26,491 nucleotides of DNA from an uncultured bacterium (GTDB taxonomy: Bacteria; Patescibacteriota; Minisyncoccia; Phycocordibacterales; UBA2100), in assembly GCA_903881205.1 (NCBI GenBank), contig CAIRSC010000089.1, forward strand, positions 1 to 26,491, given 5' to 3'. Below the pieces are notes generated by a model, which was not told the DNA's origin, made no database searches, and was given only the letters and a program-made list of their open reading frames with translations. The position numbers and the translations under genes are program-made. Of the stretch, positions 6,295-22,188 are shown piece after piece. How positions within the stretch are numbered: position 1 is the first letter of the stretch; each line of letters opens with the position of its first letter.

Positions 6295-6391
6295 GTGCAG
6301 AATACTTGCAATAGCTCGAACCAGCGCCGCCGGTGGGGGCGGCGGCGCAAAACCCCCGCAGGAAAACGGCGCGGCGAAGCCGCACCGCTGA
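6295..6391 (+). other. Distal att arm of element 1 encoding the alternative C-terminus of LSR1 (WC-RILAIARTSAAGGGGGAKPPQENGAAKPHR*)
   Basis: In frame with the LSR1 codons TGG TGC across the GTGC core. Stop TGA at 6389-6391. Confidence 0.75.
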
Positions 6392-6463
6392 CAATATCAA
6401 ATTTTTCTTTGGCGGAAAAGGTTCGAGTGCGCGTCTCGCGTACACAATTGTTCTTTACAACAT

Positions 6464-6494
6464 AGAAAGAACCCCTTGCCGAAGCAAGGGGTTC
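6464..6494 (-). terminator. Intrinsic terminator
   Basis: Perfect 11-bp stem gaaccccttgc/gcaaggggttc, a cUUCGg loop on the minus strand followed by TTTCT, downstream of ORF 6612-6836. Confidence 0.7.
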
Positions 6495-6611
6495 AGTAAC
6501 CAACACGAGGAAGGTTCTTATTCGCTCTCTATCCCGTAGGATAGTGAGCATTACCCTTTAAGAGATCCGAAGACCTCAACCTGTGTGTTGTGGTAAGTTC
6601 TTATCCGTCAT

Positions 6612-6836
6612 TTACCGTGACGTTTCCATGGAGACACTCTTGTATCCGAAGATCCGACCGATGAGGTCGGGAAGAATTGCATCGGCGAATGCCGTCAACT
6701 CTTCCTTCGAGATGCCAGTTTCCTTGGCGATATTTCCGAACCGACGCTTTGCTTCGTCGACGCTCGGAAGGCCGTTTTTGCTGGCGTATGTCTTCACCAG
6801 CTCAAGGGCGATTTCGCCTTGGCGTTTGCTATCCAT
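6612..6836 (-). CDS. Small hypothetical protein (cargo of element 1)
   Basis: MDSKRQGEIALELVK... ORF with GAGGAG 6 nt upstream of ATG 6836 and a terminator downstream. Confidence 0.6.
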   Translation of the reverse strand: MDSKRQGEIALELVKTYASKNGLPSVDEAKRRFGNIAKETGISKEELTAFADAILPDLIGRIFGYKSVSMETSR

Positions 6837-7000
6837 GTTTCTCTCCTCAAGGTACTTCATCCACGAAGCCCTCGTGGTAGGGGTCATCAGAGAATCTAAT
6901 GACTCTGTAATTTTACACCCTAAAGTATGAAGTTGTCAAGTGGTTGTGTGGACATCAAAAAATACCCATATTTACCAACGTATTTATTGCAATTGAGCGT

Positions 7001-7287
7001 ATGCCAAAAGAATTTTCTTTTTTCCAATTAACACATGGTTCGAGCCGATGGTTTTCCGGGCTCCTTGGCGGTTTTCGAGTGGTGCGGCTTTGCCGCGCCG
7101 TTTTCCTGCGGGGGTTTTGCGCCGCCGCCCCCACCGGCGGCGCTGGTTCGAGCTATTGCAAGTATTCTGCACCAGTTCGGAAATTGCAAGTCAGAGCTCG
7201 CCGCCGCGCAGGGCGCGGCGGCTCGCGCATAGTGCGGTTTCGGGTCAAAAACAAATTCGATTGGAAAAAAGAAAATTCTTTTGGCAT
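7001..7287. repeat. Composite repeat: 28-bp perfect inverted repeats enclosing an inverted, joined attP and recombinase-gene fragments
   Basis: 7001-7028 and 7260-7287 are perfect IRs. 7030-7056 = rc 8646-8672; 7056-7077 = rc 7451-7472; 7081-7172 = rc 6295-6386 (1 mismatch); 7169-7259 = rc 8682-8772. Confidence 0.95.
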
Positions 7288-7314
7288 TCCTTTAGCAATT
7301 AGAAACAACAAAAT

Positions 7315-8796
7315 ATGAAATACGTACTCTACGTACGAAAGAGCACTGAGGAAGATGACCGACAAGTATTGAGCATTGAAGCTCAGCTTGCTGAGCTGTC
7401 TTTGTATTCCGCCAAAGAAAAATTTGATATTGTTGCCTCCTTTGAGGAGGCGAAAACCGCCAAGGAGCCCGGGCGAACAAAGTTCGCAGAAATGCTGTCA
7501 TATATCGAGAGCGGGAAAGCAGAAGGCATCATATCGTGGCACCCTGACCGTCTCGCGCGCAATTCGGTGGACGGCGGCAAGATTATCCACCTGGTTGACC
7601 GTGGCTTGATTCGTTCCCTCAAATTCCCCACATTCTGGTTTGAACCCACGCCGCAGGGACTATTCATGCTCAATATTGCCTTTGGCCAATCAAAATATTT
7701 TTCTGACAATTTGCGAGAGAACGTGAAAAGAGGATTACGGCAAAAGATACGAAACGGGGTATGGCCCGGCTGGGCTCCGGCGGGGTACCTAAACAACCTC
7801 AAGACCCGAGGAATCGATGTAGACAACGCTAAGGCTCCAAAAGTACGGAAATTATTCGAATTGTACGCCACCGGAGCTTACACGCTCAACTCTCTCGCAA
7901 ATTGGTGCAAAGAAAACGGCTTGCGAGGCAACCGCGACAAGGAACTTCGCATATCCACCGTCCATCACGTCCTGAAAAATATTTTGTACATTGGCCTTAT
8001 GAAATACAACGGCGAGGTATTTGAGGGAACGCACGAGCCGATCCTGACAAAGAAACTTTTTGACCGAGTGCAGGAAATCCTCGCACAGCGGGGTAAAAAC
8101 CGCAGGGCCAAGCGGCGCACCTTTGCTTTTTCCGGCTTTCTCACGTGCGGCACCTGCACCTGCGCCATTACCGCCGAGCTACAGAAAGGACACACCTACT
8201 ACCGCTGTACCAAGAAAAAGCAAAAGTGCGACGAGAGATATATCCGCGAGGAAAAACTGACGGAGCAAATGCGGGGTTTCCTGCAAAAAGTTTCTTTGTC
8301 GAGCCAAGACACCGAGAAATGTTTGGCGGCGTTGAACAGCGAGGAAGCGCGAGCAAAAGAGGAATCACAGGGCGAAGTCCAACAACTGAAAACACAAACC
8401 GCAGACCTAGACACGAAGCTGGAAAAGTTGTTGGACGCTTACCTCACCGACGCGCTATCCACAGCGGAATACGCCGCCAAAAAAGAAAAGCTGGTGAACG
8501 AGAAAGTGCGCGTGCAAGAAAAAACCACCGACATCGAGACAAAAGGGGTGTCTTGGCTCGAACCGGCTCGTGAATTCGTTTTGTCTTTGAATCAAGCCAC
8601 GGTTCTGCTTTCCCGAAACGAAAAGAGCGAAATGACAGCGTTTCTGAAAACCATCGGCTCGAACCATGTGTTGCGTAATCGCGAATTTGTTTTTGACCCG
8701 AAACCGCACTATGCGCGAGCCGCCGCGCCCTGCGCGGCGGCGAGCTCTGACTTGCAATTTCCGAACTGGTGCCGAGAACCAGATTCGAACTGGTGA
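7315..8796 (+). CDS. Large serine recombinase LSR1 (resolvase, recombinase, zinc ribbon and coiled-coil domains)
   Basis: Catalytic motif YVRKS, DRLARN, zinc ribbon CGTC...YYRC...C. The last 10 codons overlap tRNA-Phe in antisense. Confidence 0.95.
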   Translation: MKYVLYVRKSTEEDDRQVLSIEAQLAELSLYSAKEKFDIVASFEEAKTAKEPGRTKFAEMLSYIESGKAEGIISWHPDRLARNSVDGGKIIHLVDRGLIRSLKFPTFWFEPTPQGLFMLNIAFGQSKYFSDNLRENVKRGLRQKIRNGVWPGWAPAGYLNNLKTRGIDVDNAKAPKVRKLFELYATGAYTLNSLANWCKENGLRGNRDKELRISTVHHVLKNILYIGLMKYNGEVFEGTHEPILTKKLFDRVQEILAQRGKNRRAKRRTFAFSGFLTCGTCTCAITAELQKGHTYYRCTKKKQKCDERYIREEKLTEQMRGFLQKVSLSSQDTEKCLAALNSEEARAKEESQGEVQQLKTQTADLDTKLEKLLDAYLTDALSTAEYAAKKEKLVNEKVRVQEKTTDIETKGVSWLEPAREFVLSLNQATVLLSRNEKSEMTAFLKTIGSNHVLRNREFVFDPKPHYARAAAPCAAASSDLQFPNWCREPDSNW

Positions 8797-8842
8797 CCCT
8801 TCCCTCTTCAGGGGAATGCTCTACCAACTGAGCTATCTCGGC
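8767..8842 (-). tRNA. tRNA-Phe(GAA) with encoded CCA
   Basis: GCCGAGA acceptor stem, TTCCC-CTGAAGA-GGGAA anticodon arm, TTCGAAT T-loop, ends GGCACCA. Confidence 0.97.
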
Positions 8843-8903: not shown

Positions 8904-9218
8904 TTACTGTGCTGTTGTCGTTCCCGTCCCCATGCCGGGAATCTTGTTCTTGAATTGATTCCACGTATTTTCGAGGTCACTAAACTTCGTCTGCGCCTGC
9001 ACACTGGTCCCCTGTATCTGTTGGACCTCATCGAGCATGCGATTTACGACCGGCGCAAGATACGAAAGATAGAACCAGATCGGTGCCGCGAGCAGTGCCG
9101 CATATACGATGGTACGGATAATACCGCCCCAAAAAGCATTGCGCTTCATTGTGCGAAGCATCTTATTGTTCTCGAGCGTAAGGCGGTACGTCTCTCGAAT
9201 AAGATCATTTTCGGGCAT
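8904..9218 (-). CDS. Hypothetical single-pass membrane protein between the two tRNAs
   Basis: 104-aa ORF with one TM helix and coiled-coil character. TGgTACGAT lies 6 nt upstream of the ATG. Confidence 0.7.
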   Translation of the reverse strand: MPENDLIRETYRLTLENNKMLRTMKRNAFWGGIIRTIVYAALLAAPIWFYLSYLAPVVNRMLDEVQQIQGTSVQAQTKFSDLENTWNQFKNKIPGMGTGTTTAQ

Positions 9219-9282
9219 GGAGATATCGTACCATTTAAAACCAACACGCCCCGGAGGGCGTGTGGTAAAGTTGCCTCGTTAC

Positions 9283-9354
9283 CCCCTTGTAGCTCAATGG
9301 ATAGAGCAGTCCCGTCCTAAGGGAAAGATGTAGGTTCGATTCCTGCTAAGGGGA
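9283..9354 (+). tRNA. tRNA-Arg(CCT), no encoded CCA
   Basis: CCCCTTG/TAAGGGG acceptor, GCTC/GAGC D stem, loop GTCCTAA, GTAGG-TTCGATT-CCTGC T arm. Confidence 0.9.
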
Positions 9355-10867
9355 CATGACAATTCTGACCACCACCTGACGCCGATGTCAGTGTGAAGAT
9401 TGGCGCTAATTCGACGGTTTTGAATTCCGGATACTGGAACCCGACATTTTGGGGGAAGAAGAGGCTTATCAAAACCCTAAGCTCTCCAGGCTCCAGCGTT
9501 GCCCAACAATGCGGGAATTCTTTTACGAGGCTAATGCCGAACTTTACTGCTGACTCTACTGACTCCTCGGGGCTGATGAGTGCGCTCCTCTGAATTTCCA
9601 GATTCCGCTGCTCTGCTTGCTGCTTCTCACTTTTGCGAGCGTAGTCCTCGTTGGTAATCTTTCTCTCCAGCATCAGCTGCAATAAGGAATCTCTCTCCTC
9701 TTGCAGCTTTTCCATTCTCCTCTCAACTTTCTCTGCAAGACTCAAGCTCTCTTTGTTCTCTTTCTCATGGGCGATGATTATTGCTTCTCCTACTGCGTCC
9801 AACACGTTGGAATCCGGAGTAATGGATTCAAGGAATCTTGTGAAGTCATCTTCCATGTCCGTTTTAGCGATTGCTCTTCTGAGAGGACAACCGAAATTCA
9901 TGCAGCTGTAGTAACCGTACATTTTGCTTCTGCCCTTAGTACGACCTCCCGTCAGGTTTCCTCCGCAGCCACCGCACTTCAGCCCCCTGAGAGGAAAGTC
10001 AGGATTATTCCTACTGCGAGGCTGCTTACGAGATTTGCTGCCCTCCTTGAGAAGCTGCACCTTGAAATACAATTCCTTAGAAATGATGGGCTCATGTCTG
10101 CCTTGTACCGAGATGTTGAATTTTGGTATTTCGATCCAGCCGTAGTGGATTGGGTTCCGTAGGATGTTATATACAAGCTGCTTTCCTACTTTGCGGCCGA
10201 ATCTACTGCGGATATCTCCCATCGCATTAATCTTTTTAGCGATTTCCAGATAGGTCGTTGTGCCTCTTGCGAACTCCTCAAAGCAGAACTTAACGATGGA
10301 CGCTTTTTGAGGATGTGGGGTTATGGTCTTTTTACCGAGTTCATCCTTGCTGTTTTTATAGCCCCAAGGCGCAAGAACAGGCCAATATCCATCGAGGGCT
10401 TTTGCTTTCATGCCAGCGACAGCTCTCTCACCTCGGACATCATTGTCGAACTGAGCGATGACAGCCAGCATTCCCTCCGAGAGTCTTCCGTGAGAAGTGT
10501 TCTCAATCAATTCCGTGGCAGATCTTAGTTCGACCTTACACTCTCGGAGCACTAACTTTATTGCGAAGTGGTCTACTTGATTGCGAGCCAACCTATCGAC
10601 CTTGTAGACGATCAGGTACCCAATTCTCCCTACGTTTTTTATGCAGTGCTTCTGGAGGTTTTGTAGCTCCGTTCTGTCTGCATTCTTCGCTGACTCTCCT
10701 TCTTCACGAAACACCTGCAGAACCTCCCAGCCATTTTTATCCGCGTAGGCTCTGCAATCCTTTTCCTGATTCATGAGGCTGTATCCCCGCACTTGGTCTT
10801 CGGACGAGACACGCACATAGATGATGCAGGTCTTTGGACGCTCAACGCTCTTAATTTGTTTTTTCAT
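9317..10867 (-). CDS. Large serine recombinase LSR2
   Basis: YVRVSS, VDRLARN, zinc ribbon CGGC...YYSC...C and a coiled coil. The C-terminus VPLAGIEPTSFP* is read from the antisense strand of tRNA-Arg. Confidence 0.95.
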   Translation of the reverse strand: MKKQIKSVERPKTCIIYVRVSSEDQVRGYSLMNQEKDCRAYADKNGWEVLQVFREEGESAKNADRTELQNLQKHCIKNVGRIGYLIVYKVDRLARNQVDHFAIKLVLRECKVELRSATELIENTSHGRLSEGMLAVIAQFDNDVRGERAVAGMKAKALDGYWPVLAPWGYKNSKDELGKKTITPHPQKASIVKFCFEEFARGTTTYLEIAKKINAMGDIRSRFGRKVGKQLVYNILRNPIHYGWIEIPKFNISVQGRHEPIISKELYFKVQLLKEGSKSRKQPRSRNNPDFPLRGLKCGGCGGNLTGGRTKGRSKMYGYYSCMNFGCPLRRAIAKTDMEDDFTRFLESITPDSNVLDAVGEAIIIAHEKENKESLSLAEKVERRMEKLQEERDSLLQLMLERKITNEDYARKSEKQQAEQRNLEIQRSALISPEESVESAVKFGISLVKEFPHCWATLEPGELRVLISLFFPQNVGFQYPEFKTVELAPIFTLTSASGGGQNCHVPLAGIEPTSFP

Positions 10868-11207
10868 GGTTTTTATTTTTATTTTCTAAGGTGACGAATG
10901 CTACTTTCACTCCGATTGACTTGAATGCTGCAATTTTTTGGTTGCAGAACATCTTGTACTTATCGAGGTTCTCTGGACGATACACGATGAGGAGATTGAT
11001 TTCTCCCGCACTGTCTTTGGCGTACTGAAGTGCCGCAGGGATTTGCCCCTTCTTCCGCCTCCTCCAGTAACGCTCCCGAAACACCTTCGCAATCTTTAAG
11101 CCGTTTGCTTCCGCATACGCCAGACAATGCTTCTCTTGAGAGAGCAGATCATCGACTGCCCATTTTCCCCAGTAGTCTGTCCGAACGTACACTATTGCTT
11201 TTTTCAT
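10851..11207 (-). CDS. Stand-alone resolvase-like catalytic domain lacking the catalytic Ser
   Basis: MKKAIVYVRTD...Q...CLAYAEANGLKIAKVFRE...LLIVYRPENL. Aligns by eye with the LSR2 N-terminus and overlaps the LSR2 start by 17 nt. Confidence 0.7.
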   Translation of the reverse strand: MKKAIVYVRTDYWGKWAVDDLLSQEKHCLAYAEANGLKIAKVFRERYWRRRKKGQIPAALQYAKDSAGEINLLIVYRPENLDKYKMFCNQKIAAFKSIGVKVAFVTLENKNKNHEKTN

Positions 11208-11497
11208 ACTGTTATTTTCTAATTTAACCTCGTAATTTTTGTCTCTCACGACCGCCGCGCTTTTTCTGGATTCCCAGAACTGGCGGAACGACACCTAGAA
11301 CACCGAAAGTTGGATGGGGTGCTCTTCGCTCTGGCTTCCGTGGTTGCTCTCTGGGGAAACCAGTTTTGGGCTTTCAGCCACACGCTAGACCACCACTGAA
11401 GGTGCGAAACGGCAGGTTGGAGCGACTTATCAACCTCCCGCTGCATTTCTTGCTCTGAAGGTAGAAAGCACCACCCATCTTTTTCCCTTCGTAGAAG

Positions 11498-11534
11498 CTT
11501 CTTTATAAAGAAGTTCTTTATAGAACTTCTTATA
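11498..11534. repeat. AT-rich overlapping palindromes and short direct repeats (origin- or operator-like)
   Basis: 16-bp palindrome at 11498-11513, 10-bp IR at 11508-11517/11522-11531, and ttct(t)tata x3. Confidence 0.7.
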
Positions 11535-11538
11535 ATAA

Positions 11539-11925
11539 TTAGGATCTTTTTGGGTCTTTTCCGAAGCGGTCAATCTTCGCTTTAATGAAGTTTGCGGATT
11601 TTCGCACTTCCGCTGTCAATCTCCTGCCCGGAGTCTTTTTGACAAAGCCGCTTTCGATGATGTTGTCTTTTTCTAATCGTTCAAGCGTCGCTGCTATGTC
11701 CGATTCATTTCCGCCAGAGTACTCAGCAAGCTGTCCAAGCTTATAGAGGCAGTATTGATTGTGGCGCGTCATATTCTCGATTATCGAGAACAAGTGTCTC
11801 TCCAACGGCTCTTTTACGTCGTACTTCTTGCACAGACTGTGCATGATGAGGGAGTACTTTATTTCCTCTTTATCCTCCTGTGGTGGAGGCGGTATATTTT
11901 TAAGGTACTTCTTTGCATGTTCCAT
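11539..11925 (-). CDS. Hypothetical HTH protein, possibly the N-terminal domain of a phage-type replication initiator
   Basis: LGQLAEYSGGNESDIAATLERLEKDNII resembles a winged HTH. It lies directly upstream of the palindromic array. Confidence 0.45.
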   Translation of the reverse strand: MEHAKKYLKNIPPPPQEDKEEIKYSLIMHSLCKKYDVKEPLERHLFSIIENMTRHNQYCLYKLGQLAEYSGGNESDIAATLERLEKDNIIESGFVKKTPGRRLTAEVRKSANFIKAKIDRFGKDPKRS

Positions 11926-11969
11926 GTTTGTAATGTTTACTCTGACAACCTTTCAGCGCTGGTTCCCAC

Positions 11970-12158
11970 CTAGGGTGGTTCCTCTTGGTTGGTAGGGCTG
12001 CTTCTTTGTTTGGCCATCACTCTTGCCCAGATTCTTAGTAATTCTGGAGCTAGTAGAAGGCAAAAGTCAGTGATGTGCTGCGCCTCGACTTCGGTGTATT
12101 GATTTTTTTGGCGCAAAATTCTTAAGATTTTTTCACGCTCATCCGATGTGTGCTCCAT
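11970..12158 (-). CDS. Small hypothetical protein
   Basis: 62-aa ORF co-oriented with its neighbours and filling the gap between them. Confidence 0.4.
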   Translation of the reverse strand: MEHTSDEREKILRILRQKNQYTEVEAQHITDFCLLLAPELLRIWARVMAKQRSSPTNQEEPP

Positions 12159-12199
12159 GCACTTTGTGCAGAATTTCTCGGAATTTTCCTTACATCAAC

Positions 12200-12222
12200 A
12201 AAAAAGCCCCGATTTACGGGGT
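12200..12222 (-). terminator. Intrinsic terminator
   Basis: ccccg-taaat-cgggg followed by CTTTTTT on the minus strand, just after ORF 12248-13045. Confidence 0.6.
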
Positions 12223-12247
12223 CTGACATCCTCAGGAAAAGATTTGT

Positions 12248-13045
12248 TTATTCTAGGTAGGCTCGTTCCTCCCGTTGCTCTGGTAGGATTTCAAATACCA
12301 CCTGATATGCGTCCCCACCCAGAGGCTCAAGCGGTTCTCCCGTTAATCGTGGGAAAACCTCCTTGAGAAGCGTTTTGAGAAGATTGATTTGTTTTCTCTT
12401 GCTCTCTTTAGCGGTCTTGCTTGAAGACAATTTGATAAGCCCCTTGTTAGCCGCCGCTTCTTCCAAGATGTGCCACTGCTCCTTGGGGCGACCACCTTTC
12501 TTTTCAAGCCCAAGCTGCGAACATTCAACACCATTCCTAGCCCAACTCTTGGAGGCTATACCGGCATATAGAGTGCGTCCATCTATGAATCGCAGTTGCA
12601 GGGAGCGCCAGTCAGCATCGGCTGGCGTGTCATCAATCACTATATGACTTGGAGAGATGCTTTCTGGGAATGCCGCTACAGCGCGTTCTATAATCTTGTC
12701 CAAGTCATCTATCCATAGCATCAAACAATCCTTTTCATCGTCAAAGTGAACTCCTTCGAGTACTTCAAAAACCTCAGTGACCATCGTGCCGATGACAAGT
12801 CCGTCATGGTATATGGTTCCATTAAGAATGGTGATATAAGATTTCTCTTTTGCGATTCTAGCGTTCCAATGACCAATTAAGGTTTTTGCCTCTGGATAGG
12901 AAATGTGGATACTCTGTAACACCTGAAATGGAATCTTTACTAGGAGAGGCTTTGAGTCTGGAGATAATTTTGATTGTGTGACAATCACTCCAATGAGATC
13001 GCAAATTTGCCTTTCTTGCTTTTGCGTCAATTTGCCTTGCTCCAT
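12248..13045 (-). CDS. Hypothetical protein, possible C-terminal winged-helix DNA-binding domain
   Basis: Long ORF. The C-terminal WHILEEAA...RKQINLLKTLLKEVF...YQV pattern resembles OmpR-type wHTH tails. Start ambiguous (13045 or 13099). Confidence 0.55.
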   Translation of the reverse strand: MEQGKLTQKQERQICDLIGVIVTQSKLSPDSKPLLVKIPFQVLQSIHISYPEAKTLIGHWNARIAKEKSYITILNGTIYHDGLVIGTMVTEVFEVLEGVHFDDEKDCLMLWIDDLDKIIERAVAAFPESISPSHIVIDDTPADADWRSLQLRFIDGRTLYAGIASKSWARNGVECSQLGLEKKGGRPKEQWHILEEAAANKGLIKLSSSKTAKESKRKQINLLKTLLKEVFPRLTGEPLEPLGGDAYQVVFEILPEQREERAYLE

Positions 13046-13180
13046 ATAGAAAATAGTACAGGCAAAGTGCCAATACGCCACCACCTTTCCTTTCTGCAAT
13101 AGCGAGGTAAGCTTCTAGGACACATACCAAATATCGAAGAGATCTAAACCGTCAGCCTTCCAAAAGCAGGCGGCACGATC

Positions 13181-13308
13181 GCAAATCGTTGACTACAGAA
13201 AACCCGTCATTTAGGGCGTAGTCAACGTTGCAGAGGGAAACTTCTGTAGAGCCGCAAGGCTCCCTAGTGGCGGGCTTTATGTTTGCCCACCACTAATTAC
13301 GAATTAGT
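13181..13308 (+). ncRNA. Candidate structured RNA or leader (unassigned family)
   Basis: Consecutive stems: a 10-bp perfect stem (13187-13196/13218-13227), a GAAA-capped stem (13230-13247), a GCAA-capped stem (13249-13262) and two mutually exclusive 3' hairpins. Confidence 0.5.
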
Positions 13309-13323
13309 TGTGAGACAAGCATT

Positions 13324-13815
13324 ATGCACGTTGGACAAGTAATTGGTTTCATAAAGAGACAATGGTTAGCGGCAATCCTGATTATTCTTCTCATTCTCTT
13401 TTATCTATATTCTCAGAATTCCAACAAGCAAATTATTGATAATCAATTCAAATGCCAACAGCTTGCTAATCAGATCGAGCAGACAATACATTCCGACGAC
13501 ACTGGAATGTTTAGCATGTTGAGCGTGCTGAATGCTCATTTCAACTCCGAGACTCTACCTCCAGCGACGGCAACAAGTACGCCTGCCACTATCACAGGGG
13601 CTGATTTCTTCTATAAAGTCTTCTATAGTCGGAAATACAATTCCTGTTTGTACGCCCACTTTATCCGCGGAAAGGCTGTTGGAATTAACATGACACTTAT
13701 GTTGATTGATGACCTGCTTAGTGGCCAAAATGCGCTGTACATAGATGCCTCTCTTTCTATCTCAAATTCCGATGCGTATGCAGAACTTGAGAAACAAATC
13801 CCAAATTTTCAGTGA
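13324..13815 (+). CDS. Hypothetical membrane-anchored protein
   Basis: 163-aa ORF with an N-terminal TM helix (WLAAILIILLILFYLY) and a Cys pair. Confidence 0.7.
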   Translation: MHVGQVIGFIKRQWLAAILIILLILFYLYSQNSNKQIIDNQFKCQQLANQIEQTIHSDDTGMFSMLSVLNAHFNSETLPPATATSTPATITGADFFYKVFYSRKYNSCLYAHFIRGKAVGINMTLMLIDDLLSGQNALYIDASLSISNSDAYAELEKQIPNFQ

Positions 13816-14312
13816 TTGATATGAAATGGGGTAAACTTCCGGATTCAGGCCTCTTTAGAACTGCTGAACAGGGAGAAATGCTCAGACCATTTCTCATTCT
13901 AGCTTTTTCACTTATTGCCATAGTAGCTATTCTCTATAACACAAAAGATTCACCGGATAATCTACCCGCAAATGCACCTGCAACTGTCTTTGTTCCGCAG
14001 AGCGTAACTCCTGCAGAACAAAAGGCCGCAGTGGCGGGAATTGCAGCTCTAAAATGTCCAGAGGCATATGCCAACGATGTCGAAAGAGCAAAGGCTTTCT
14101 ATGAGTACTTCGACTATTTTTTTACGGTGTACCCGAATAAACACGGAATGTATGACTGGGACGCTGGCCGCATGGACTTCCTTATCTCACATCACTGCAC
14201 AACTACGCTTGTAGCCTATGGTTATGACGGGACAAGCCCGATAGACTCTGCGATTAGACAGAAGCTCATCAACAACGCTATGCAATCAGACCAAGCCACG
14301 AGCACGCCGTAG
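13812..14312 (+). CDS. Hypothetical membrane-anchored or secreted protein
   Basis: ORF coupled to the previous stop codon, with a hydrophobic segment and two Cys. Start ambiguous. Confidence 0.65.
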   Translation: MIDMKWGKLPDSGLFRTAEQGEMLRPFLILAFSLIAIVAILYNTKDSPDNLPANAPATVFVPQSVTPAEQKAAVAGIAALKCPEAYANDVERAKAFYEYFDYFFTVYPNKHGMYDWDAGRMDFLISHHCTTTLVAYGYDGTSPIDSAIRQKLINNAMQSDQATSTP

Positions 14313-14327
14313 TATCAGTAATGCCTT

Positions 14328-14540
14328 ATGCAAGAATCAGGCGATGTTCATTCCACGATACAACTGCTGACCATCAAGGAGGTTGCAGGGTTGCTGAAGA
14401 TATCTCAGATGACGGTACGTCGTTTGCAGCAGGGGCGGCATCTCCCGTTCATAAAGGTTGGCGGTAGTGTCCGTTTCGCCAAGAGTGACATTATTCAATA
14501 TCTAAAGAAACAGAGAATTGATTCAATCGATAGGTTTTGA
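14328..14540 (+). CDS. Excisionase-like HTH (MerR/HTH_17) DNA-binding protein
   Basis: LLTIKEVAGLLKISQMTVRRL...LPFIKVGGSVRF...I signature. Confidence 0.85.
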   Translation: MQESGDVHSTIQLLTIKEVAGLLKISQMTVRRLQQGRHLPFIKVGGSVRFAKSDIIQYLKKQRIDSIDRF

Positions 14541-14618
14541 GATTTGCTGGTCGTTGGGCTATTTACTAATTAAATAGTCAAGGAGCAGTACAGGAGCGGC
14601 CAGCAAATCTCAAAACCT
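14532..14618. repeat. 22-bp inverted repeat (21/22) with a nested AT-rich hairpin, between convergent genes
   Basis: aggttttgagatttgctggtcg (14532-14553) and cggccagcaaatctcaaaacct (14597-14618), with inner gctattta/taaatagt. Confidence 0.9.
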
Positions 14619-14632
14619 CCATTGGGGCTGCG

Positions 14633-14998
14633 CTACTCTTCAGGGATTGACGCATTGCTCTCATTGAGTGAGCGAATGAGCGCAAGGACGCTCAGCCCTC
14701 CTTGATGTTGCACTGTTTCCTTTGGCTTTCCCACCGTATGTTCAAGCAACAGGCGTGCGGCATTCACGTCAGGAGCCTTTGAGTAGACAAACTCTTCTCC
14801 ACCGTCAACCTCTTTGACAACACGCAAGCCAATAGCAGAATCTATGAGAGCGTCAAACAACTCTTTTGCGCGAGGCTTTAATTGCTTCAACATCAATTCA
14901 CGCATCTTTTGAGTCTCAAGCGTCCTTGGTGACATAGGAGCTCCGGCTCCCGCTCTTGCTCCTCCCCAAGTATTCTTTTTTAGTACCGCTGATTCCAT
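14633..14998 (-). CDS. Phage terminase small subunit-like protein
   Basis: N-terminal GGARAGAG and C-terminal PDVNAARLLLEHTVGKPKETV pattern recalled from small-terminase-like proteins. No search was run. Confidence 0.45.
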   Translation of the reverse strand: MESAVLKKNTWGGARAGAGAPMSPRTLETQKMRELMLKQLKPRAKELFDALIDSAIGLRVVKEVDGGEEFVYSKAPDVNAARLLLEHTVGKPKETVQHQGGLSVLALIRSLNESNASIPEE

Positions 14999-15068
14999 AG
15001 ATTTTCAAGTTTCAAGTTCGGAATGCCATTTAATTAAACCTCCGATTTCGTAATATGGATACTATTTC

Positions 15069-15566
15069 CTATTTCACTCGCGTTACATACCGAATTGGGA
15101 TAAGTTCATTCGTTTCTAAAAACTCGGAGCCCGACTGCGCCTTAATATGGGAATTCCCACCCGAAACTAAGATGTGGTATATAAAGGCGTCTTGGCCATG
15201 CTCCTGAAGGAAACTCAGTTCATTTCTAGAAACATAGATGGGCGACGAGAGAGAACTTGTAGTACTCTTCACCTCAATGTATTTCTCTCTGCCGTCCGTA
15301 AAAAATGACAAGACATCATAGCCTGCACCATCTCCATCTTCAGCGGCAACGTTGCGTACCCTGTCTGCCAAATCTTTTCTTCCGATGGACTCAAAAAAAT
15401 CCTGTTCTATTGCAACTGCAATCTCCTCTCCTCTGTCTCCGGTCAATTTCCTTGACCTATTTATTTCTTCCCAGTTAATCTTCCGTGCCGTTCTATAGAA
15501 TCTTTCAGGAGCAATTATTTCTTTCTGCTGTTGTGGTTCGGAAACATCCCTAACGAAATTGCGCAC
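15069..15566 (-). CDS. DUF3883 (NOV C-terminal) PD-(D/E)xK endonuclease domain protein, possibly N-terminally truncated
   Basis: GDRGEEIA...E...DGAGYDVLSF...KYIEVKST...NE motif. Confidence 0.8.
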   Translation of the reverse strand: MRNFVRDVSEPQQQKEIIAPERFYRTARKINWEEINRSRKLTGDRGEEIAVAIEQDFFESIGRKDLADRVRNVAAEDGDGAGYDVLSFFTDGREKYIEVKSTTSSLSSPIYVSRNELSFLQEHGQDAFIYHILVSGGNSHIKAQSGSEFLETNELIPIRYVTRVK

Positions 15567-15592
15567 CGAAGTAATCGCTCCACTTATTTTCG

Positions 15593-15880
15593 ATGCCCAT
15601 CTGGGTTCCTAAACCCCTAGGATTGAATCGTCAAATTATTAATCCCTACACAGGGAGCACGACCTCAGATTCCAACCAAGAGATAAACGGACAAACTTAT
15701 TATCATTTTAAAGGAGCTTTAAGAGATTCGATATACCCAACAAGAGCGAAGTCATTTGCGACTTTAAATCTACCCACCAGCAGCATGCATGGCACCTTCA
15801 CTTTCTTCTCTCAGATTGCCTGTGAAGATGGAGTGTTTCCGGAAAAGTTCGAAGACTCCCCTCTAACAGCAGCTGTATGA
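15593..15880 (+). CDS. Hypothetical ORF or gene remnant
   Basis: 95-aa ORF filling the gap between the two nucleases, with no recognisable motif. Confidence 0.25.
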   Translation: MPIWVPKPLGLNRQIINPYTGSTTSDSNQEINGQTYYHFKGALRDSIYPTRAKSFATLNLPTSSMHGTFTFFSQIACEDGVFPEKFEDSPLTAAV

Positions 15881-15935
15881 ACAGAGAACAATAACCATCA
15901 TCCAAATTATGGTTCAATAGCGTTAGAGTATTGAG

Positions 15936-17072
15936 TTACGCTATTAAATCTCTTATTTTCAATAAATCATGTCCGTCCACTAGCTTTACATTGTTCTTTT
16001 GTGCTAAAGCCTTAGCAGATGGAGTAAAAGTTGAGTTTGTAATTACCCAGCCCTCATTTCCACTGTAGTAGCTAACAGCACCGACAACCTCCTGAACAGC
16101 TTTGTTTCCAACAGTGCCTTGGTATCTTTTGGCTTGGATGACCAAAGTCTTCCCGCTTTTCTTAGCTAACAAATCAGCTCCCTGGTCTCCAGTAGTAGCA
16201 GTACCACTAACATCGTAACCACACTCCTTAAATATTTTTGATAGGTATGTTTCAAATTCAACACCAGAAAGGTCATTTAAGCTGATATCCTTTTTAGGGC
16301 TACCTTTTTGGGCTTCGTGGTATTCTCTAAAAATCTTCTCTAAGACCTTAGGCAAATCTCTATACTGATCTGGTACATTCCATGTATATCCTTTTTTAAA
16401 AAAGTCTTTTAATTTGGCATCACTAATACCGTCAATTACAGCCAGTTTTCTTATACAAGCTTCAATTTCCTTAGATAAAAGAACCCAGCTTTCATCTCCG
16501 TAGTCATCGATGATAGATACCTTTCTCTCTGTAATCTCAAGGAATTTATCTATTATATCTTTCCGGCCATCAAGAAAATGTCTTGCTTCACGCTCAGTCT
16601 TATCTTCGTATTCCTTTTCAGCTTGCTCCTGCCTTATTCTATTTTCCTCTACAATCTCCTTGTATCTCTCTTTAAATTTAGGCAGAAGAGAATTCTTCAA
16701 TTCAATATATTGAAGAGGAATACCCTGTCTCTTTTCCCATACAGGCAACCATTCTCTAGATTTAGGAGCTATGTTTGGAACCCTTTCTCTTATAGCAATT
16801 TCCTTTATACAATCACTCACCTGATTTTCTACATAATGAGGCCAGCTATCCTTTCTAAGGTTTTTTAGATGGTCTTCAATTAAAATCTGGTTTCTTTCCT
16901 CAAGCGATTTGGTCTTATCTAAATCTGCAACAGGGTATTTGTTTTCTAAATCCAATTGTGCCTTACGCGTAACAAAGTGGTTTTTACTAGATTCCTGTAT
17001 AGAGTTAATTACTGAGACTATACCCCAAATAATGAATCCAATGATGACCAGAGGTATGGCAAGTTCCTCCAT
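15936..17072 (-). CDS. Mrr-family (type IV-like) restriction endonuclease with N-terminal TM helix
   Basis: C-terminal LSGVEFE...GY.V...TGDQGADL...VIQAKRY...V..V...ITNSTFT..A...A....V.LVDG. AT-rich. Confidence 0.85.
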   Translation of the reverse strand: MEELAIPLVIIGFIIWGIVSVINSIQESSKNHFVTRKAQLDLENKYPVADLDKTKSLEERNQILIEDHLKNLRKDSWPHYVENQVSDCIKEIAIRERVPNIAPKSREWLPVWEKRQGIPLQYIELKNSLLPKFKERYKEIVEENRIRQEQAEKEYEDKTEREARHFLDGRKDIIDKFLEITERKVSIIDDYGDESWVLLSKEIEACIRKLAVIDGISDAKLKDFFKKGYTWNVPDQYRDLPKVLEKIFREYHEAQKGSPKKDISLNDLSGVEFETYLSKIFKECGYDVSGTATTGDQGADLLAKKSGKTLVIQAKRYQGTVGNKAVQEVVGAVSYYSGNEGWVITNSTFTPSAKALAQKNNVKLVDGHDLLKIRDLIA

Positions 17073-17162
17073 AAAATCATTTCTTACTATACGATAAATT
17101 TTAAAATCTCACAATAACCTCCAACCGCAGCTCTCTAATTACACAACTAGGTTTTAACTCCA

Positions 17163-17297
17163 TCAGGCTCTTGTTTCCTGAAGCTGAGCCATTGGCGTAA
17201 AGCCACGATTTTGGAGGCTGGCGAACTTTCCTGCCACAGAGCTAAGCGTCTGAAGGAACTGGACTATTGGTTTTGAGTTCTGTATCGTCAGGGGGAC
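17163..17297 (-). other. Distal att arm of element 2 encoding the alternative C-terminus of LSR2 (VP-LTIQNSKPIVQFLQTLSSVAGKFASLQNRGFTPMAQLQETRA*)
   Basis: A 45-codon open frame starting at the GTCCCC core, in the same frame as the LSR2 codons GTC CCC. Confidence 0.75.
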
Positions 17298-17536
17298 TAG
17301 ATCGCGAGCAATTCACGGATTCTAGGCTCGTCGAACCCGACGACGAACTGGTCGCCGATGGTGATCACCGGCACGCCCATCTGGCCGCTCTTATCAATCA
17401 TCTCCTTGCGCTTCTCGAGGTCCGTTGCAACATTGTAGTCGGTGAACGCCACGTTGTTGGCGGTGAAGAATTCCTTGGCCATGTGGCAGAAGTGGCACGA
17501 TGGCGTCGAATAAATCTGTACTGGTGTTGTGTTCAT
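17297..17536 (-). CDS. Glutaredoxin/NrdH-like redoxin
   Basis: YSTPSCHFC, GVPV and GFD motifs. Confidence 0.9.
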   Translation of the reverse strand: MNTTPVQIYSTPSCHFCHMAKEFFTANNVAFTDYNVATDLEKRKEMIDKSGQMGVPVITIGDQFVVGFDEPRIRELLAI

Positions 17537-17586
17537 GGTGTTTGTGTAAGGCGTATAAGCTACCCTCAGATTATATCACTGCAGGT

Positions 17587-18168
17587 TTAGGAACGAAGCG
17601 ATGTAAGCGCCTTGGACCACGAGATGAGCTGATCAAGCATGCCGTTGGCACGCTCATCGTACGAAGTGAACAGCTCTGCCTCCGGAGTGCCCTGCGAGGA
17701 GGCCATGATGACATCGAACGGCATGTGGACTGAATACTTTATGGGAGCCATTCCGAGCTCAATAACGACCGATCGCAGCTGCTCGATCGCTCGCGCACCC
17801 ATGGCACTGCCGTAGCTCACGAATCCAACTGCCTTGTTATTCCATTCCGACCCCACGTAATCAAGTGCATTTTTTAGTACGGCTGAATAGCCGTGATTGT
17901 ACTCGGGTGCGATGATGACGAACCCGTCTGCCTCAGCGACCTTGGCAGTCCACTTCACGACCGCAGGATCTGTGTACGGCTTTGTCTTGTAGCTGGGCGT
18001 CTCTGTCTCATTGAAAAACGGCATCGGGTAATCCCGCAGATCGAGCACCTCTATTTCGACCCCTTCTTTCTTTCCAAGAAGTGCGGTGATCCAGCGTGCA
18101 GGCTTTTCGGCGAAGCGGCCCTCGCGGGTCGATCCGACGATTACTTTGATCTTGAGTGGTTCAGCCAT
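17587..18168 (-). CDS. NADPH-dependent FMN reductase family flavoprotein
   Basis: GSTREGR, PEYNHGYSAVLKNALD and VSYG motifs. Confidence 0.9.
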   Translation of the reverse strand: MAEPLKIKVIVGSTREGRFAEKPARWITALLGKKEGVEIEVLDLRDYPMPFFNETETPSYKTKPYTDPAVVKWTAKVAEADGFVIIAPEYNHGYSAVLKNALDYVGSEWNNKAVGFVSYGSAMGARAIEQLRSVVIELGMAPIKYSVHMPFDVIMASSQGTPEAELFTSYDERANGMLDQLISWSKALTSLRS

Positions 18169-18255
18169 AATGAAATTATGTTATTTGATAGGACGTTCAT
18201 TGTACGCACGCAACTTTACTTTGTAAAGTGGATAATGCTATGGTAGCGTATTGCT

Positions 18256-18585
18256 ATGACCCTCAGAACCGCGCAGCAGAAAAAAGACCTCTGCCCCGGC
18301 TGCCCTGTCGCGCGCGTAGCCGACATTTTGGGTGATTCGTGTTCACTTCTGATCGTCCGCGACCTCCTCAGCACTCCCCAGCGCTTCTCACAGCTCGAAA
18401 CATCGCTTCGTGGGATCAGCACACGGACACTCACCAACAAGCTCAAACAACTCGAACACGAAGGAATGATAAAACGAAACGAATATACAAAACCGCAGCG
18501 AGTGGAGTATTCGCTTACCAAAAAGGGAGAGGCCCTGCACACTGTGATCGACGCGATGCGCTCATACGGGAAGAAGTATCTCTAA
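18256..18585 (+). CDS. HxlR-family transcriptional regulator
   Basis: CPV...ILGD...LIVRDL...RFSQL...GIS...L...LK.LE..G...R......VEYSLT.KG. Divergent from the FMN reductase. Confidence 0.9.
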   Translation: MTLRTAQQKKDLCPGCPVARVADILGDSCSLLIVRDLLSTPQRFSQLETSLRGISTRTLTNKLKQLEHEGMIKRNEYTKPQRVEYSLTKKGEALHTVIDAMRSYGKKYL

Positions 18586-18629
18586 CCCCGTGGGGGGGGG
18601 TTGGTACGAAGTTGGAACCAATATGTTAT

Positions 18630-19325
18630 TTACCGACGTCTAGCTGACCGTCGAAGGCCATCGGATAGTGCATATTCGTATAATGGACCGAAAAGCACAC
18701 CTGAAAGAAACCAGAAAACGAACTCCTCAATGGGAACGCCAAGGATGAGGATTCCACTAAGGTGTCCGAAATCGTACGTATGCTGAATCCAGGTCGGTGA
18801 AGCGTACGCAACACTAGCATAGAAGCTCGTGGATATTACTGCCATCAATACGCCGCTCATGAGCGCGTCCTTCCAGAGATCAGACCGGTTCCAAAAGATC
18901 ACTGCAATCGCCAAAATCATTGCAATGCTGCTGGCATAAAACGAAGTCAAACCTATCCCCCAAAACAACCAGGACATCATATAAGCCAGGAAAAGCAGTA
19001 TTGCCAATGCTCCGATGTGATGCGGCTTTGCCTTCACTCGATACAGCTGCCTCGAGAAGATGACCTCGTATGCGACAGCCATTATTCCGCCACTAAAAAA
19101 CCCTAGAATTAGGTCTTCGATACCAACACGGGTGCCTGTAATCGTTTGTGGATGCCACCAATCCTTGGTCCACCAGTAGTAGGCAGTCCACACACTGAGA
19201 ATTCCTATGAATGTTCCTGTATAGAGCATTTCCCTGCGCAGATCTTTTCTCCAGAAGTAGAAAAGAGACCATACTATCGCAAAAGGTATGCAACCGACTA
19301 AATAGACAAGATTCGTCGGAATCAT
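18630..19325 (-). CDS. Lycopene cyclase domain-containing membrane protein
   Basis: Two repeated hydrophobic halves ending G.EDL.LGF and GVPIEEFVFW. Confidence 0.65.
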   Translation of the reverse strand: MIPTNLVYLVGCIPFAIVWSLFYFWRKDLRREMLYTGTFIGILSVWTAYYWWTKDWWHPQTITGTRVGIEDLILGFFSGGIMAVAYEVIFSRQLYRVKAKPHHIGALAILLFLAYMMSWLFWGIGLTSFYASSIAMILAIAVIFWNRSDLWKDALMSGVLMAVISTSFYASVAYASPTWIQHTYDFGHLSGILILGVPIEEFVFWFLSGVLFGPLYEYALSDGLRRSARRR

Positions 19326-19490
19326 CGTACGATAATTATAACCCTGGCGATACGTTAGTTTCCAATTTTCCCCAACTCTTACGATTTGGCCGTCTTTACC
19401 TGCGTACCGGCAAATCAGGACAATACTCGCGCTGACAATTGAGACTTAGAATCTTCATAAAACAAGCCTCTCGATAGGGTTTCCTAATAT

Positions 19491-19516
19491 GTGCGGGCGG
19501 CGGGAATCGAACCCGC
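19491..19516 (-). pseudogene. 3' fragment (T arm plus acceptor strand) of a second tRNA-Gly-like gene
   Basis: The reverse complement reads GCGGG-TTCGATT-CCCGC-CGCCCGC-A. No D or anticodon arm upstream. Confidence 0.6.
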
Positions 19517-19577
19517 AGCTAATCCGAGGGAATGAAAAGTGACGAAGGCAGCTTTTCATCATTTTGCCACTATTTGG

Positions 19578-19595
19578 GTGCGGGTACGGGGAATC
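19578..19595 (-). repeat. 18-bp direct repeat of the tRNA-Gly(CCC) 3' end (att-like scar)
   Basis: gtgcgggtacggggaatc is identical at 19578-19595 and 19725-19742. Confidence 0.9.
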
Positions 19596-19660
19596 AAGTC
19601 AGGCGTAATTTTCTGCTGAAAATTCGCACGACCCTGCCTCGGCGCCGAGCGCCTGCGGCC

Positions 19661-19707
19661 GTTCGATTCCCGACGCGAAGCACGCTGTGCTTCGCTTACC
19701 CGCACAA
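19661..19707 (+). repeat. Inverted tRNA-Gly 3' end split by a 9-bp hairpin
   Basis: gttcgattccc (rc of 19736-19746), then gcgaagcac-gct-gtgcttcgc, then tacccgcacaa (rc of 19723-19733). Confidence 0.85.
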
Positions 19708-19725
19708 TATTCGCTTCGCTCTTTG

Positions 19726-19796
19726 TGCGGGTACGGGGAATCGAACCCCGCTCTCAACCTTGGGAAGGTCGCATTCTACCACTAAACCATACCCGC
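19726..19796 (-). tRNA. tRNA-Gly(CCC), no encoded CCA
   Basis: GCGGGTA/TACCCGC acceptor, CGACC-TTCCCAA-GGTTG anticodon arm, CGGGG-TTCGATT-CCCCG T arm. Confidence 0.95.
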
Positions 19797-19857
19797 AAAA
19801 TTTGTACGCCCGCGACTTTGGTAATGTAACAAAAAACGCACACGAGGGCGAGCTGCG

Positions 19858-22188
19858 CTAAGCGACGGAGCGCTTGATCCAGAAGAATTGCCGCGCAAGG
19901 ACGTAGAGCACTGCGGTGCACACAACTGCCGCAGAGAAAGCGAGAGATACCGCTGCATATGATGGCTCGGTCGCGTTGTAGAGCATCATGAGGATCGGCG
20001 CTTTGAAGAAAAGGAAGACTAGTATCACTTCCACCACACCGAGGCCCGCCAGCTGTATCTTCTGCAACGTGCTCGTCACGCCGCTATACACGGCAGGGGT
20101 GAGAATGAAGAAGCCGTAGCCCAGGAACATAAAGAGAAGCATCAGGCACATGCGCAGCGCATCCCCGCCGAGGACTTCCGTCCCGCGCATGCAGATCAGG
20201 AATGCTGCGACCGCTTCGACAACGGAGAGCGTCACTGGGAATGGAAGTACTCGCCGCAGGAACGGGCGCGTGCTCACAGGCATCGTGTGAGCAGTGGGTC
20301 GTATCGCCCAGTATGAAATAAGCATATACGGTACGCCGACGGCGAAAAAGGTGATGAGCGATACGTTGAGCGGAGTGAACGGGAACGAGTACCCCGCGAT
20401 ACTCAGTGCCATAAACAGGAGAAATCCGACGAAGGTCTGGTTGAGGAAGATGCTCGCATAGATCTCGATATTTTCGATCATGCTGTCGGCAAGTCGCACT
20501 CCTGCGGGCAACTCGATCAGGCTGTTATTCATCAGTACCACGCCCGCCACCTGGCGCGTCGCAGGGGCTCCGTCGAACATCGCGATACCGAGGTCGGCAT
20601 TTTTCACCGATAGTGCATCGTTGGCTCCGTCGCCGACCATTGCAGTGAATCCGTCTTCCTTGAGAATGCCAATCACGCGCTCTTTCTGACGCGGTTGAAT
20701 ACGCGCAAATATGCGGTATTTTTCTACCGCGCTTCGGAATCCGGCATCATCGAGCGCATCCAATTCTGCCCCGGTAATCACGCCATCACTACCCGCAATG
20801 CCCGCGCCCCGCGCGATCGCCTGCACAGTGGCAGGATTATCCCCCGAGAGCACCCGGATGCAGACGCCGCGCTGCTGGAAGAAGTCGACCGTGTCGCGTA
20901 TCCCCTCGCGCAGTTCCTGCTGCAGTACAAACAGCGCAACGGCAGTGAGCTTCATGCCGGGTTCGAGACTCTTGGGTATTTCCTGTGCGTCCAATCTGAC
21001 GACGCTGAGCGTGCGCTTTCCCGCCGACGCATACTGCGCAACGGTGTCCTCGAACCATTTCTTATTTCCGCTTTCCGACAAGTGATCGACGAACGCATCG
21101 GAAGAACCCACGAGGACGATACCGCCCTCAGTGCGTATGCCGCCGTATCCGCGCCACGAAGAAAAAGCGACCGCAGCAAGGATCGCCGCGTCCGTCTGCA
21201 TACCAATGAATGAGCCGACCGCAATGATCGTCTGCGATGTATCGTGCGAACCGCGTATGTAAGTACTCATGAGCTCCCGAGCATGACCCTCGGACTCTCC
21301 CGGAGACACATGCACCGCTTCTACAGTGAGCACATTTTCGGTGAGCGTCCCGGTCTTATCCATGCACAGATGCTTGATGCGGCCGAATTTTTCCGTTGCA
21401 TTCACTTCCTGCAATAGCACATTTCTATTCAAAAAATGTACCGCCCCGAAGGTAAAGAGCAGTGTCGTCGAGACGATAAGGCCCTGCGGCACCAGGATAC
21501 TGGCAAGCGCTCCGACCGTCTCCACCATTTGTATGCCGCTGTCGTGCACCAGAAATCCGCGGATGACGATATATGCGATCGACGCGATGAGTACCGCTAG
21601 TGTGTAGGTGATAACGGTGTTTATCGAGCGCTGTATCGGGCTCGGATTTGCCGTGTATCGTCTGAGCCCCTGGCTCATCCGCGCAAGTGCGCCCTCGGCA
21701 TACGATGTCTCGGCACGCACCGTCGCGCGACCCGCCGTTACCACACTTCCCCCCAAAAGTTGGTCTTCCTCTTTTTTGGTAAACGAATCGGATTCTCCCG
21801 TGATGAGACTTTCACTGATCTCCAGACTGTCCGCGTCGATCACGATACTGTCGCAGGGCACCTGATCCCCGAGTTTTACCCGCAGTGTGTCACCCTTTTG
21901 CACCATTTCGAATGCGATGTCACTCATGCTGCCGTCGGTATTCACACGAGCCGCGTGAAGCGCCGTGAGCAGCTGCAGGCGCTCGAGCGTCTGCCATGCG
22001 CGGATATCCTGCGCCATGCCCAATACCATATTCACGAAGACGACTGCGCCGAGAAAAATACCGTCGCGCACGCTACCGAACACGATCAGGAGCGCGACCA
22101 CGACGAAAATGATCGCATTGATGGGGAGGAAGACATGCCGCGCCACGATCGAAACAATATCCGTGATCTTCCGACGGTCCATATTCAT
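19858..22188 (-). CDS. Cation-translocating P-type ATPase (CtpE-like)
   Basis: ITGES, DKTGTLT phosphorylation site, SGDN and MVGDGANDA motifs. Confidence 0.92.
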   Translation of the reverse strand: MNMDRRKITDIVSIVARHVFLPINAIIFVVVALLIVFGSVRDGIFLGAVVFVNMVLGMAQDIRAWQTLERLQLLTALHAARVNTDGSMSDIAFEMVQKGDTLRVKLGDQVPCDSIVIDADSLEISESLITGESDSFTKKEEDQLLGGSVVTAGRATVRAETSYAEGALARMSQGLRRYTANPSPIQRSINTVITYTLAVLIASIAYIVIRGFLVHDSGIQMVETVGALASILVPQGLIVSTTLLFTFGAVHFLNRNVLLQEVNATEKFGRIKHLCMDKTGTLTENVLTVEAVHVSPGESEGHARELMSTYIRGSHDTSQTIIAVGSFIGMQTDAAILAAVAFSSWRGYGGIRTEGGIVLVGSSDAFVDHLSESGNKKWFEDTVAQYASAGKRTLSVVRLDAQEIPKSLEPGMKLTAVALFVLQQELREGIRDTVDFFQQRGVCIRVLSGDNPATVQAIARGAGIAGSDGVITGAELDALDDAGFRSAVEKYRIFARIQPRQKERVIGILKEDGFTAMVGDGANDALSVKNADLGIAMFDGAPATRQVAGVVLMNNSLIELPAGVRLADSMIENIEIYASIFLNQTFVGFLLFMALSIAGYSFPFTPLNVSLITFFAVGVPYMLISYWAIRPTAHTMPVSTRPFLRRVLPFPVTLSVVEAVAAFLICMRGTEVLGGDALRMCLMLLFMFLGYGFFILTPAVYSGVTSTLQKIQLAGLGVVEVILVFLFFKAPILMMLYNATEPSYAAVSLAFSAAVVCTAVLYVLARQFFWIKRSVA

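Follow-up and report, generated by a model that had tools for sequence, protein, structure and literature searches.

A LOOT RNA on a Patescibacteria genomic island, probably a two-state leader of exchangeable cargo genes

A genomic island at tRNA-Arg

The window (the whole stretch of 26,491 nucleotides that was analyzed) comes from an uncultured member of the Patescibacteriota with a genome of 0.8 Mb (93% complete). It contains a genomic island (Table 1) bounded by GGGGAC repeats at 9350-9355 and 17292-17297. In a close relative (G012) the site is empty, and tRNA-Arg directly adjoins the 79-aa gene that is found at 17297-17536 in the window. An orthologous island (L201) has the recombinase, the divergent genes and the second membrane gene in common with this one and carries a different first cargo gene. 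On the minus strand, a resolvase-like ORF without DNA-binding domains (10851-11207; 78% in L201) overlaps the start of the recombinase, and a 283-aa gene (12248-13099; 49% identical homolog in L201) is oriented divergently from the RNA described below. Its product, a candidate partner protein for this RNA, had no family match, and its C terminus is winged-helix-like by eye only. On the plus strand, the cargo starts with two genes for membrane-anchored proteins followed by an excisionase-like gene. Otherwise, no family, homolog or usable Atlas match was obtained for the downstream proteins, and searches of the two membrane genes against Pfam, PHROG and PADLOC gave no match. A 22-bp hairpin at 14532-14618, likely a two-way terminator, separates the excisionase-like gene from a converging 121-aa gene; this last protein has no PHROG match and contains a GGARAGAG motif of the kind found in small terminase subunits. 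The genes at 15069-17072 (minus strand) code for a NOV_C/DUF3883-type nuclease (PADLOC PDC-S36, PD-T4-1) and a membrane-anchored Mrr-type nuclease and are probably defence cargo. Elsewhere in the window, there is a second serine-recombinase element at tRNA-Phe (6295-8842) with nested near-perfect inverted repeats (arms of 95 and 94 nt, plus several of 22-28 nt), and the 3' ends of tRNA-Gly are repeated at 19490-19796, suggesting older insertion scars.

Table 1. Features of the island and of the RNA upstream of its cargo genes (window coordinates)
Feature	Position	Strand	Remarks
Host island, 8 kb	9350-17297		Serine recombinase at tRNA-Arg(CCT), lower GC
Large serine recombinase	9317-10867		Inserted at tRNA-Arg(CCT)
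Candidate -10 hexamer TAAGCT, weak	13108-13113	+	Would start transcription near 13120; kept in L201
LOOT RNA core (RF03000)	13141-13262	+	Rfam score above the gathering cut-off
P1 with 11-nt-type GAAA receptor	13141-13180	+	Receptor strands 13143-13148 UCUAAA (5') and 13174-13178 CACGA (3')
P2a, 10-bp helix	13187-13227	+	Arm A 13187-13196, arm A' 13218-13227; perfect inverted repeat
Loop Y, enclosing a small stem P2b	13197-13217	+	Pairs with X in the alternative fold
P3, 8 bp including two G-U	13229-13248	+	GAAA tetraloop 13237-13240, which presumably docks on the P1 receptor
P4, 5 bp, GCAA loop	13249-13262	+	One of four core helices
Switch strand X	13263-13278	+	Beyond the end of the Rfam model; partner Y or Z
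U-rich run 3' of the X:Y helix	13276-13284	+	Possible pause or weak terminator tail
Strand Z	13285-13295	+	With X forms H1, or begins extended H2
Hairpin H1	13265-13295	+	-16.6 kcal/mol
Extended hairpin H2	13279-13322	+	Spans the translation start region; ends 1 nt before ATG
First cargo gene, 163 aa, orphan	13324-13815	+	N-terminal membrane anchor; swapped for another membrane gene in L201
Second gene, ca. 166 aa	13812-14312	+	N-terminal membrane anchor; homolog with 68% identity at the corresponding site of L201
HTH_17 excisionase-like gene	14328-14540	+	PF12728, E 1.4e-13; not a conserved LOOT neighbour

A LOOT RNA in front of the cargo genes

A cluster of hairpins lies immediately upstream of the first cargo gene. 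A sequence-only reading had delimited it at 13181-13308, taken it to be undescribed and named a match to a known family as its refutation; the Rfam scan returned LOOT (RF03000) over the full length of the model (positions 1-121), with 65 bits (gathering cut-off, 46.4 bits) and an E value of 2.5e-10. The cluster is the 3' part of a LOOT RNA, a new copy within an already catalogued family, and had been started ca. 40 nt too late, missing P1. Its stems and strong folding were real, since the segment reached a folding energy of -53.6, compared with -31.2 +/- 3.8 for shuffled sequences (z -5.95, none of 200 shuffles as good). The perfect 10-bp inverted repeat and the GCAA-capped 5-bp stem were as described, while the GAAA-capped stem is 8 bp long, not 7, and the gcaa/ttgc extension proposed for the 10-bp stem overlaps it and falls outside the family fold. 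The plus strand, deduced from the GNRA loops, agrees with the Rfam match; the choice of strand depends on these two lines, because the folding energy hardly differs between plus (-53.6) and minus (-52.7).

The homolog collection and covariation check that the same reading had proposed did find covariation. In a gap-free alignment of 31 relatives, 97.3% of the paired positions could pair and 16 pairs had two-sided changes, with a covariation score of 0.370 versus 0.135 for shuffled and at most 0.074 for slid structures; the structure scored included the X:Y pairing discussed below, which contributed 1 of the 16 pairs. The signal was strong in P2a, P3 (two-sided changes at six of its eight pairs) and P4 against both controls. 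A larger set of 213 distinct sequences was collected, 202 of which could be parsed; about 45% of the members are one pattern-selected subfamily, and relatives are not independent. The P4 loop varies (GNRA in 139, UUCG-like in 37, other in 17). The P3 loop is invariably GAAA and starts 10 nt past P2a in 190 of 193 members, a constancy partly set by the parser. Conservation beyond the receptor and the GAAA is limited to linker As (86, 99 and 71%), a C-G pair (97%) and a single U (75%). Two further features of relatives, a GNRA hairpin just before P1 (34/193) and a start motif, ACAAYTRAATA (65/193), have left only remnants here at 13120-13140.

LOOT was present in 41 of 151 genomes of the same order, 29 of 151 of the class and 30 of 151 of the phylum (19-27% of the Patescibacteria sampled) and in none of 14 controls. 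The named matches come mostly from Patescibacteria, in keeping with a family of uncultured, metagenome-derived bacteria, and pattern matches outside this group were discarded as chance hits in which the fold was absent. Our genome has a second copy (contig C101, 78 bits). A recombinase lies ca. 3 kb away from it, and the same holds for 14 of the 30 loci whose upstream flanks are long. The family was entered in Rfam 14 as metagenome based, from ZWD (PMC7779021), its model was revised with R-scape in Rfam 15, adding two covarying pairs (PMC11701678), and CaCoFold reported 28 cross-covariations for it (PMC7657543). Where these three papers name LOOT, they give no function for it, the main text of Weinberg 2017 does not mention the family, and a literature search on riboswitches or structured RNA in Patescibacteria found nothing.

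The 124 ORFs located downstream of LOOT fall into 80 families without a common pathway. Most are membrane or secreted proteins, with an N-terminal hydrophobic segment in 84 of the 124 versus 221 of 713 genome ORFs. Control of the excisionase, suggested by the sequence-only reading, found no backing, as a homolog was present in none of the 31 loci with long downstream flanks and did not follow the matching gene in L201. The same reading had proposed an sRNA or antitoxin against the two membrane genes, both of whose products do have a membrane anchor. However, the RNA is located on the sense strand directly upstream rather than antisense, proteins of 163 and 166 aa are far from a small (<60 aa) type I toxin and match nothing in Pfam, PHROG or PADLOC, and L201 has a different first gene behind an RNA that is nearly the same. 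An antitoxin is hardly credible here.

A GAAA receptor-like loop in P1

The internal loop of P1 resembles the 11-nt tetraloop receptor, the reference form of which is CCUAAG_UAUGG (PMC11381326, PMC2275092). Among the 202 members, CCUAAA_CAUGG (140) and CCUAAC_UAUGG (39) predominate and the form of the window copy is rare (1/202); part of the motif was demanded by the parser, a step at which just 1 of the 213 sequences failed. C2-G10, U3.A8, the AA platform, a variable position 9 and a covarying 1:11 are shared with the reference receptor. So is a non-Watson-Crick 6:7, which is G-U there and A-C or C-U in LOOT, never a Watson-Crick pair. Making this pair G-C in the 11-nt receptor costs 4.3 kcal/mol (PMC2275092). 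The constant length of P3, its invariant GAAA and the variable loop of P4 point indirectly to the P3 loop as the one that would dock on P1.

Such docking, known from the c-di-GMP-I riboswitch, would fit an orphan riboswitch in which expression of the gene is turned on when a ligand, or Mg2+/K+, stabilizes the docked P1-P2a-P3 core. The conserved core, the variable output platforms, which would act on transcription in some members and on translation in others (see below), and the mostly membrane or secreted products downstream would agree with it, but the few conserved bases outside the receptor and the GAAA leave little for a binding pocket, and the genes downstream have no pathway in common. 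Within 9000-20000, no riboswitch family of Rfam, the c-di-GMP-I model included, gave a match up to an E value of 5. We regard a riboswitch of this kind as unlikely.

A predicted alternative fold between the P2 loop and a downstream strand

Just past the end of the Rfam model, strand X is complementary to loop Y. The duplex was estimated at about -18 to -21 kcal/mol in the window copy and averages -24.1 kcal/mol in the family, versus -12.8 for shuffled sequences, with 186 of 199 members beating all 20 shuffles. When 50 distinct loop types were compared, cognate X:Y pairs reached -26.0 and non-cognate ones -14.2 kcal/mol; the cognate was better in 49 of the 50 and the best of all in 32. The two strands also change together. 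In the pattern-selected subfamily, one Y-X position pair is C-G in 84 members and U-A in four, with zero mixed cases. Our copy and that of L201 differ at six positions over 13141-13282, four of which form compensatory pairs, 13143/13178 in P1 and 13212/13266 in X:Y (U-A in the window, C-G in L201), while 13158 and 13176 are unpaired. Since X pairs with ca. 20 of the 23 loop nucleotides, leaving a median of two free, a full X:Y helix should be incompatible with an intact P2a instead of forming a pseudoknot with it, so that the two would be mutually exclusive.

Predicted energies, from a model that ignores pseudoknots and docking, place the two folds close to each other as X emerges (difference of +0.8 kcal/mol on average, X:Y favoured in 77 of 135 tails; 50:50 at 13280 for the window copy). 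Later the core fold wins (-3.3 at ATG+20 over the 135 tails), and in the window copy it is predicted to be ahead by 3.6-9 kcal/mol after strand Z is made. Adoption of X:Y as a final state would thus need kinetics or a helper. In the family, the U-rich run that follows X usually contains 6 U in 9 nt. The idea that the X tail invades P2a in a sequence-specific way was rejected (5.28 nt for cognate versus 5.07 for swapped tails).

Output platforms and the start of the cargo gene

The sequence-only reading had pictured a cis-regulatory RNA with a switchable 3' end, in which hairpins 13265-13295 and 13292-13308 compete for ACTA (13292-13295), the structure ending 15 nt before the ATG at 13324. That spacing and the shared bases hold, and the covariation and relatives with the same H1/H2 layout lend support to the general idea. 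However, the small hairpin is worth only -2.1 alone and matters only when extended into H2, and the main competitor, X:Y, had been missed.

X:Z pairing in the window copy (-17.8 versus -9.4 for shuffled sequences) beats all 30 shuffles, as it does in 59 of 166 tails (ca. 5 expected). A copy of arm A passes the same comparison in 46 of the 166 (ca. 5 expected) and ends no more than 9 nt from the ATG in 39 of 43. With start codons chosen by rule, the ATG lies a median of 38 nt 3' of X in 183 of 199 members and in or just past X in 17. Relatives use four outputs: a start-codon hairpin (Z leads to it in the window, L018, L021 and L112), a terminator (L032 and L060), an arm-A copy at the ATG and an ATG inside the helix. 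By the model, all four would be OFF in the X:Y fold. In L201, the tail has been rewritten, and Z still fits its own X, with Z and H2 rebuilt before a different gene. Classic terminators were found in just 6 of 166 tails under a strict rule, and neither partner strand in 43 of 135.

In X:Z members, opening the start was computed to cost 6.1 when X is free and 8.6 when it is taken away; in A-copy members, the cost was 11.4 with the real A' and 6.4 with a shuffled one. Over 135 thinned tails, it was 5.5 with the real X and 6.5 with a shuffled X (P 7e-7, overstated, since members are kin). For the window copy itself, the effect appears weak and model dependent: full-length models lower the cost of opening the start by 0.2-3 kcal/mol in the core fold, and a truncated one reverses the sign (12.4 versus 9.4), since the ATG lies under a third hairpin (13302-13344) in that fold. 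Larger effects than this are predicted for L018, L124 and L201. A 5-codon uORF at 13279 was dropped as a candidate, as its start codon, frame and stop vary.

Rfam types LOOT as "Gene; sRNA", and a free-standing sRNA ending at the U-run has to be considered, with X:Y as a fixed pseudoknot or terminator guarding its 3' end and the downstream pairings insulating the next gene. The third of tails lacking a partner strand, the U-run and a promoter-like signal of its own would suit it (-10-like hexamers precede 128 of 191 members versus 56.5 in shuffles). No sigma-70 consensus promoter or classic terminator was seen near the RNA in the window. A free-standing sRNA would leave unexplained why Z and the A copy match the X and A' of the very member in which they occur, and why they are placed in a terminator arm or right at the ATG. 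It also fits poorly with the tight spacing to the gene and with the ATG that 17 members have in or just past X. We consider an independent sRNA rather improbable.

A probable two-state leader

Our preferred explanation, which we hold to be probable, is that LOOT acts here in cis as a two-state 5' leader to the exchangeable cargo position of a mobile island, probably switching the gene found there on or off. In the ON state, P1, P2a, P3 and P4 would form with the GAAA loop of P3 on the receptor of P1, and Z would capture X (H1), making the start at 13324 easier to open. In the OFF state, X would zip up loop Y, P2a would open, and Z, set free, would form the long hairpin next to the ATG. Transcription may also be halted by the X:Y helix together with the U-run. 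The choice would probably be made cotranscriptionally, when X is out and Z still to come. We infer both the polarity of the switch and the transcription of the leader. As input, we favour a factor that keeps P2a together or opens it, either a protein or complementary RNA, over a small metabolite. If this explanation is correct, LOOT would cease to be an orphan sRNA and become a leader that controls genes, in a phylum whose regulation is little known. The family itself was already catalogued, and the value lies in its function and in an extended model with strand X, the U-run, the 11-nt receptor and four outputs with one predicted polarity.

A hypervariable helix without wobble pairs

P2a points to how the switch might be triggered. 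Its pairs 1-9 are almost never mismatched and have 9 G-U in 1,737 cells (0.5%), compared with 17% in P3, 14% in P1b and 19% in X:Y, and pairs 2-8 have none in 574 cells of the pattern-collected members; G-U is tolerated at the top pair (10) alone. The parser required contiguous P2a pairs, which hides mismatches, and put no penalty on G-U. At the same time the helix is hypervariable, more so than any other part of the RNA (1.5-1.9 bits of entropy at pairs 4-8), with 32 alleles among 89 members that have one and the same loop, and alleles are common to different P1b and P3 backgrounds. A plain two-state model does not need a wobble-free P2a. Such a helix suggests either a code that is read through strand exchange or a protein dependent on a perfect duplex.

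The first of these options leads to a version of the leader model with a named input, a trans-acting immunity RNA like CI of phage P4 or c4 of phage P1. LOOT would then be an RNA-only specificity switch with P2a as the code: a short terminated LOOT in the X:Y fold would expose A/A', block P2a of new transcripts by strand exchange and force them OFF, so that resident elements silence cargo with the same code. The lack of wobble pairs, the entropy and the shared alleles speak for it, and so does the repeat/anti-repeat/repeat order within a leader of a mobile island, reminiscent of seqA, CI and seqC. On the other hand, the processed RNA and its action in trans are hypothetical, arm A has no second target in the flanks or the window (best match 8.15 versus 8.03), and co-resident copies show no visible avoidance, 2 of 45 pairs having identical P2a versus 0.4% between genomes, a comparison of low power in which the identical pairs are probably duplications. 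We give this version a small chance of being right. In each of two genomes, a pair of LOOT copies is identical in both P2a and loop (L065/L246 and L076/L257), probably through duplication of the element, and in L206 (LOOT at ca. 1287-1360, minus strand) the P2a arms come from two alleles and are unpairable, pointing to a recombinant or an assembly chimera.

Strict Watson-Crick symmetry would also serve both strands of a DNA site, with A and A' as half-sites for an operator or for recombination, separated by about two turns of the helix (the commonest spacer is 21 nt), and the A copy as a third half-site; at 84 of 169 loci, the intergenic region also borders a divergent gene. However, the receptor, the GNRA loops, the G-U pairs elsewhere and the X:Y covariation are features of RNA, and operators are rarely perfect, whereas just 13 of 202 members have fewer than 10 contiguous pairs (a parser-selected figure). 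A DNA site is very unlikely.

Comparison with known systems

The RNA of the window has the same four helices, receptor-like loop and GAAA as the LOOT family of Rfam, and nothing excludes its membership. The Rfam model, however, ends at 13262, without X, the U-run or the output platform, and its sRNA type differs from the evidence for a leader given here. Alternative folds coupled to a terminator or a start site, as expected of a riboswitch, were predicted by computation. The likeness to the c-di-GMP-I riboswitch (PMC11705072) extends to tetraloop-receptor docking (which in LOOT is inferred), variable platforms and membrane or secreted targets; LOOT differs in having no Rfam match to it, the receptor helix first, no recognizable ligand junction and a Patescibacteria island as host. 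With P4 CI and its seqA/seqC (PMC4825925), as with P1 c4, it would share a structured leader on a mobile element, complementary strands on both sides, and a premature stop or start masking. LOOT has no sequence or Rfam similarity to them and precedes cargo genes, not replication genes. The arrangement typical of CI, complementary targets upstream and downstream within a single leader, is present in LOOT, as Y-X-Z in the window copy and as A-A'-copy in relatives.
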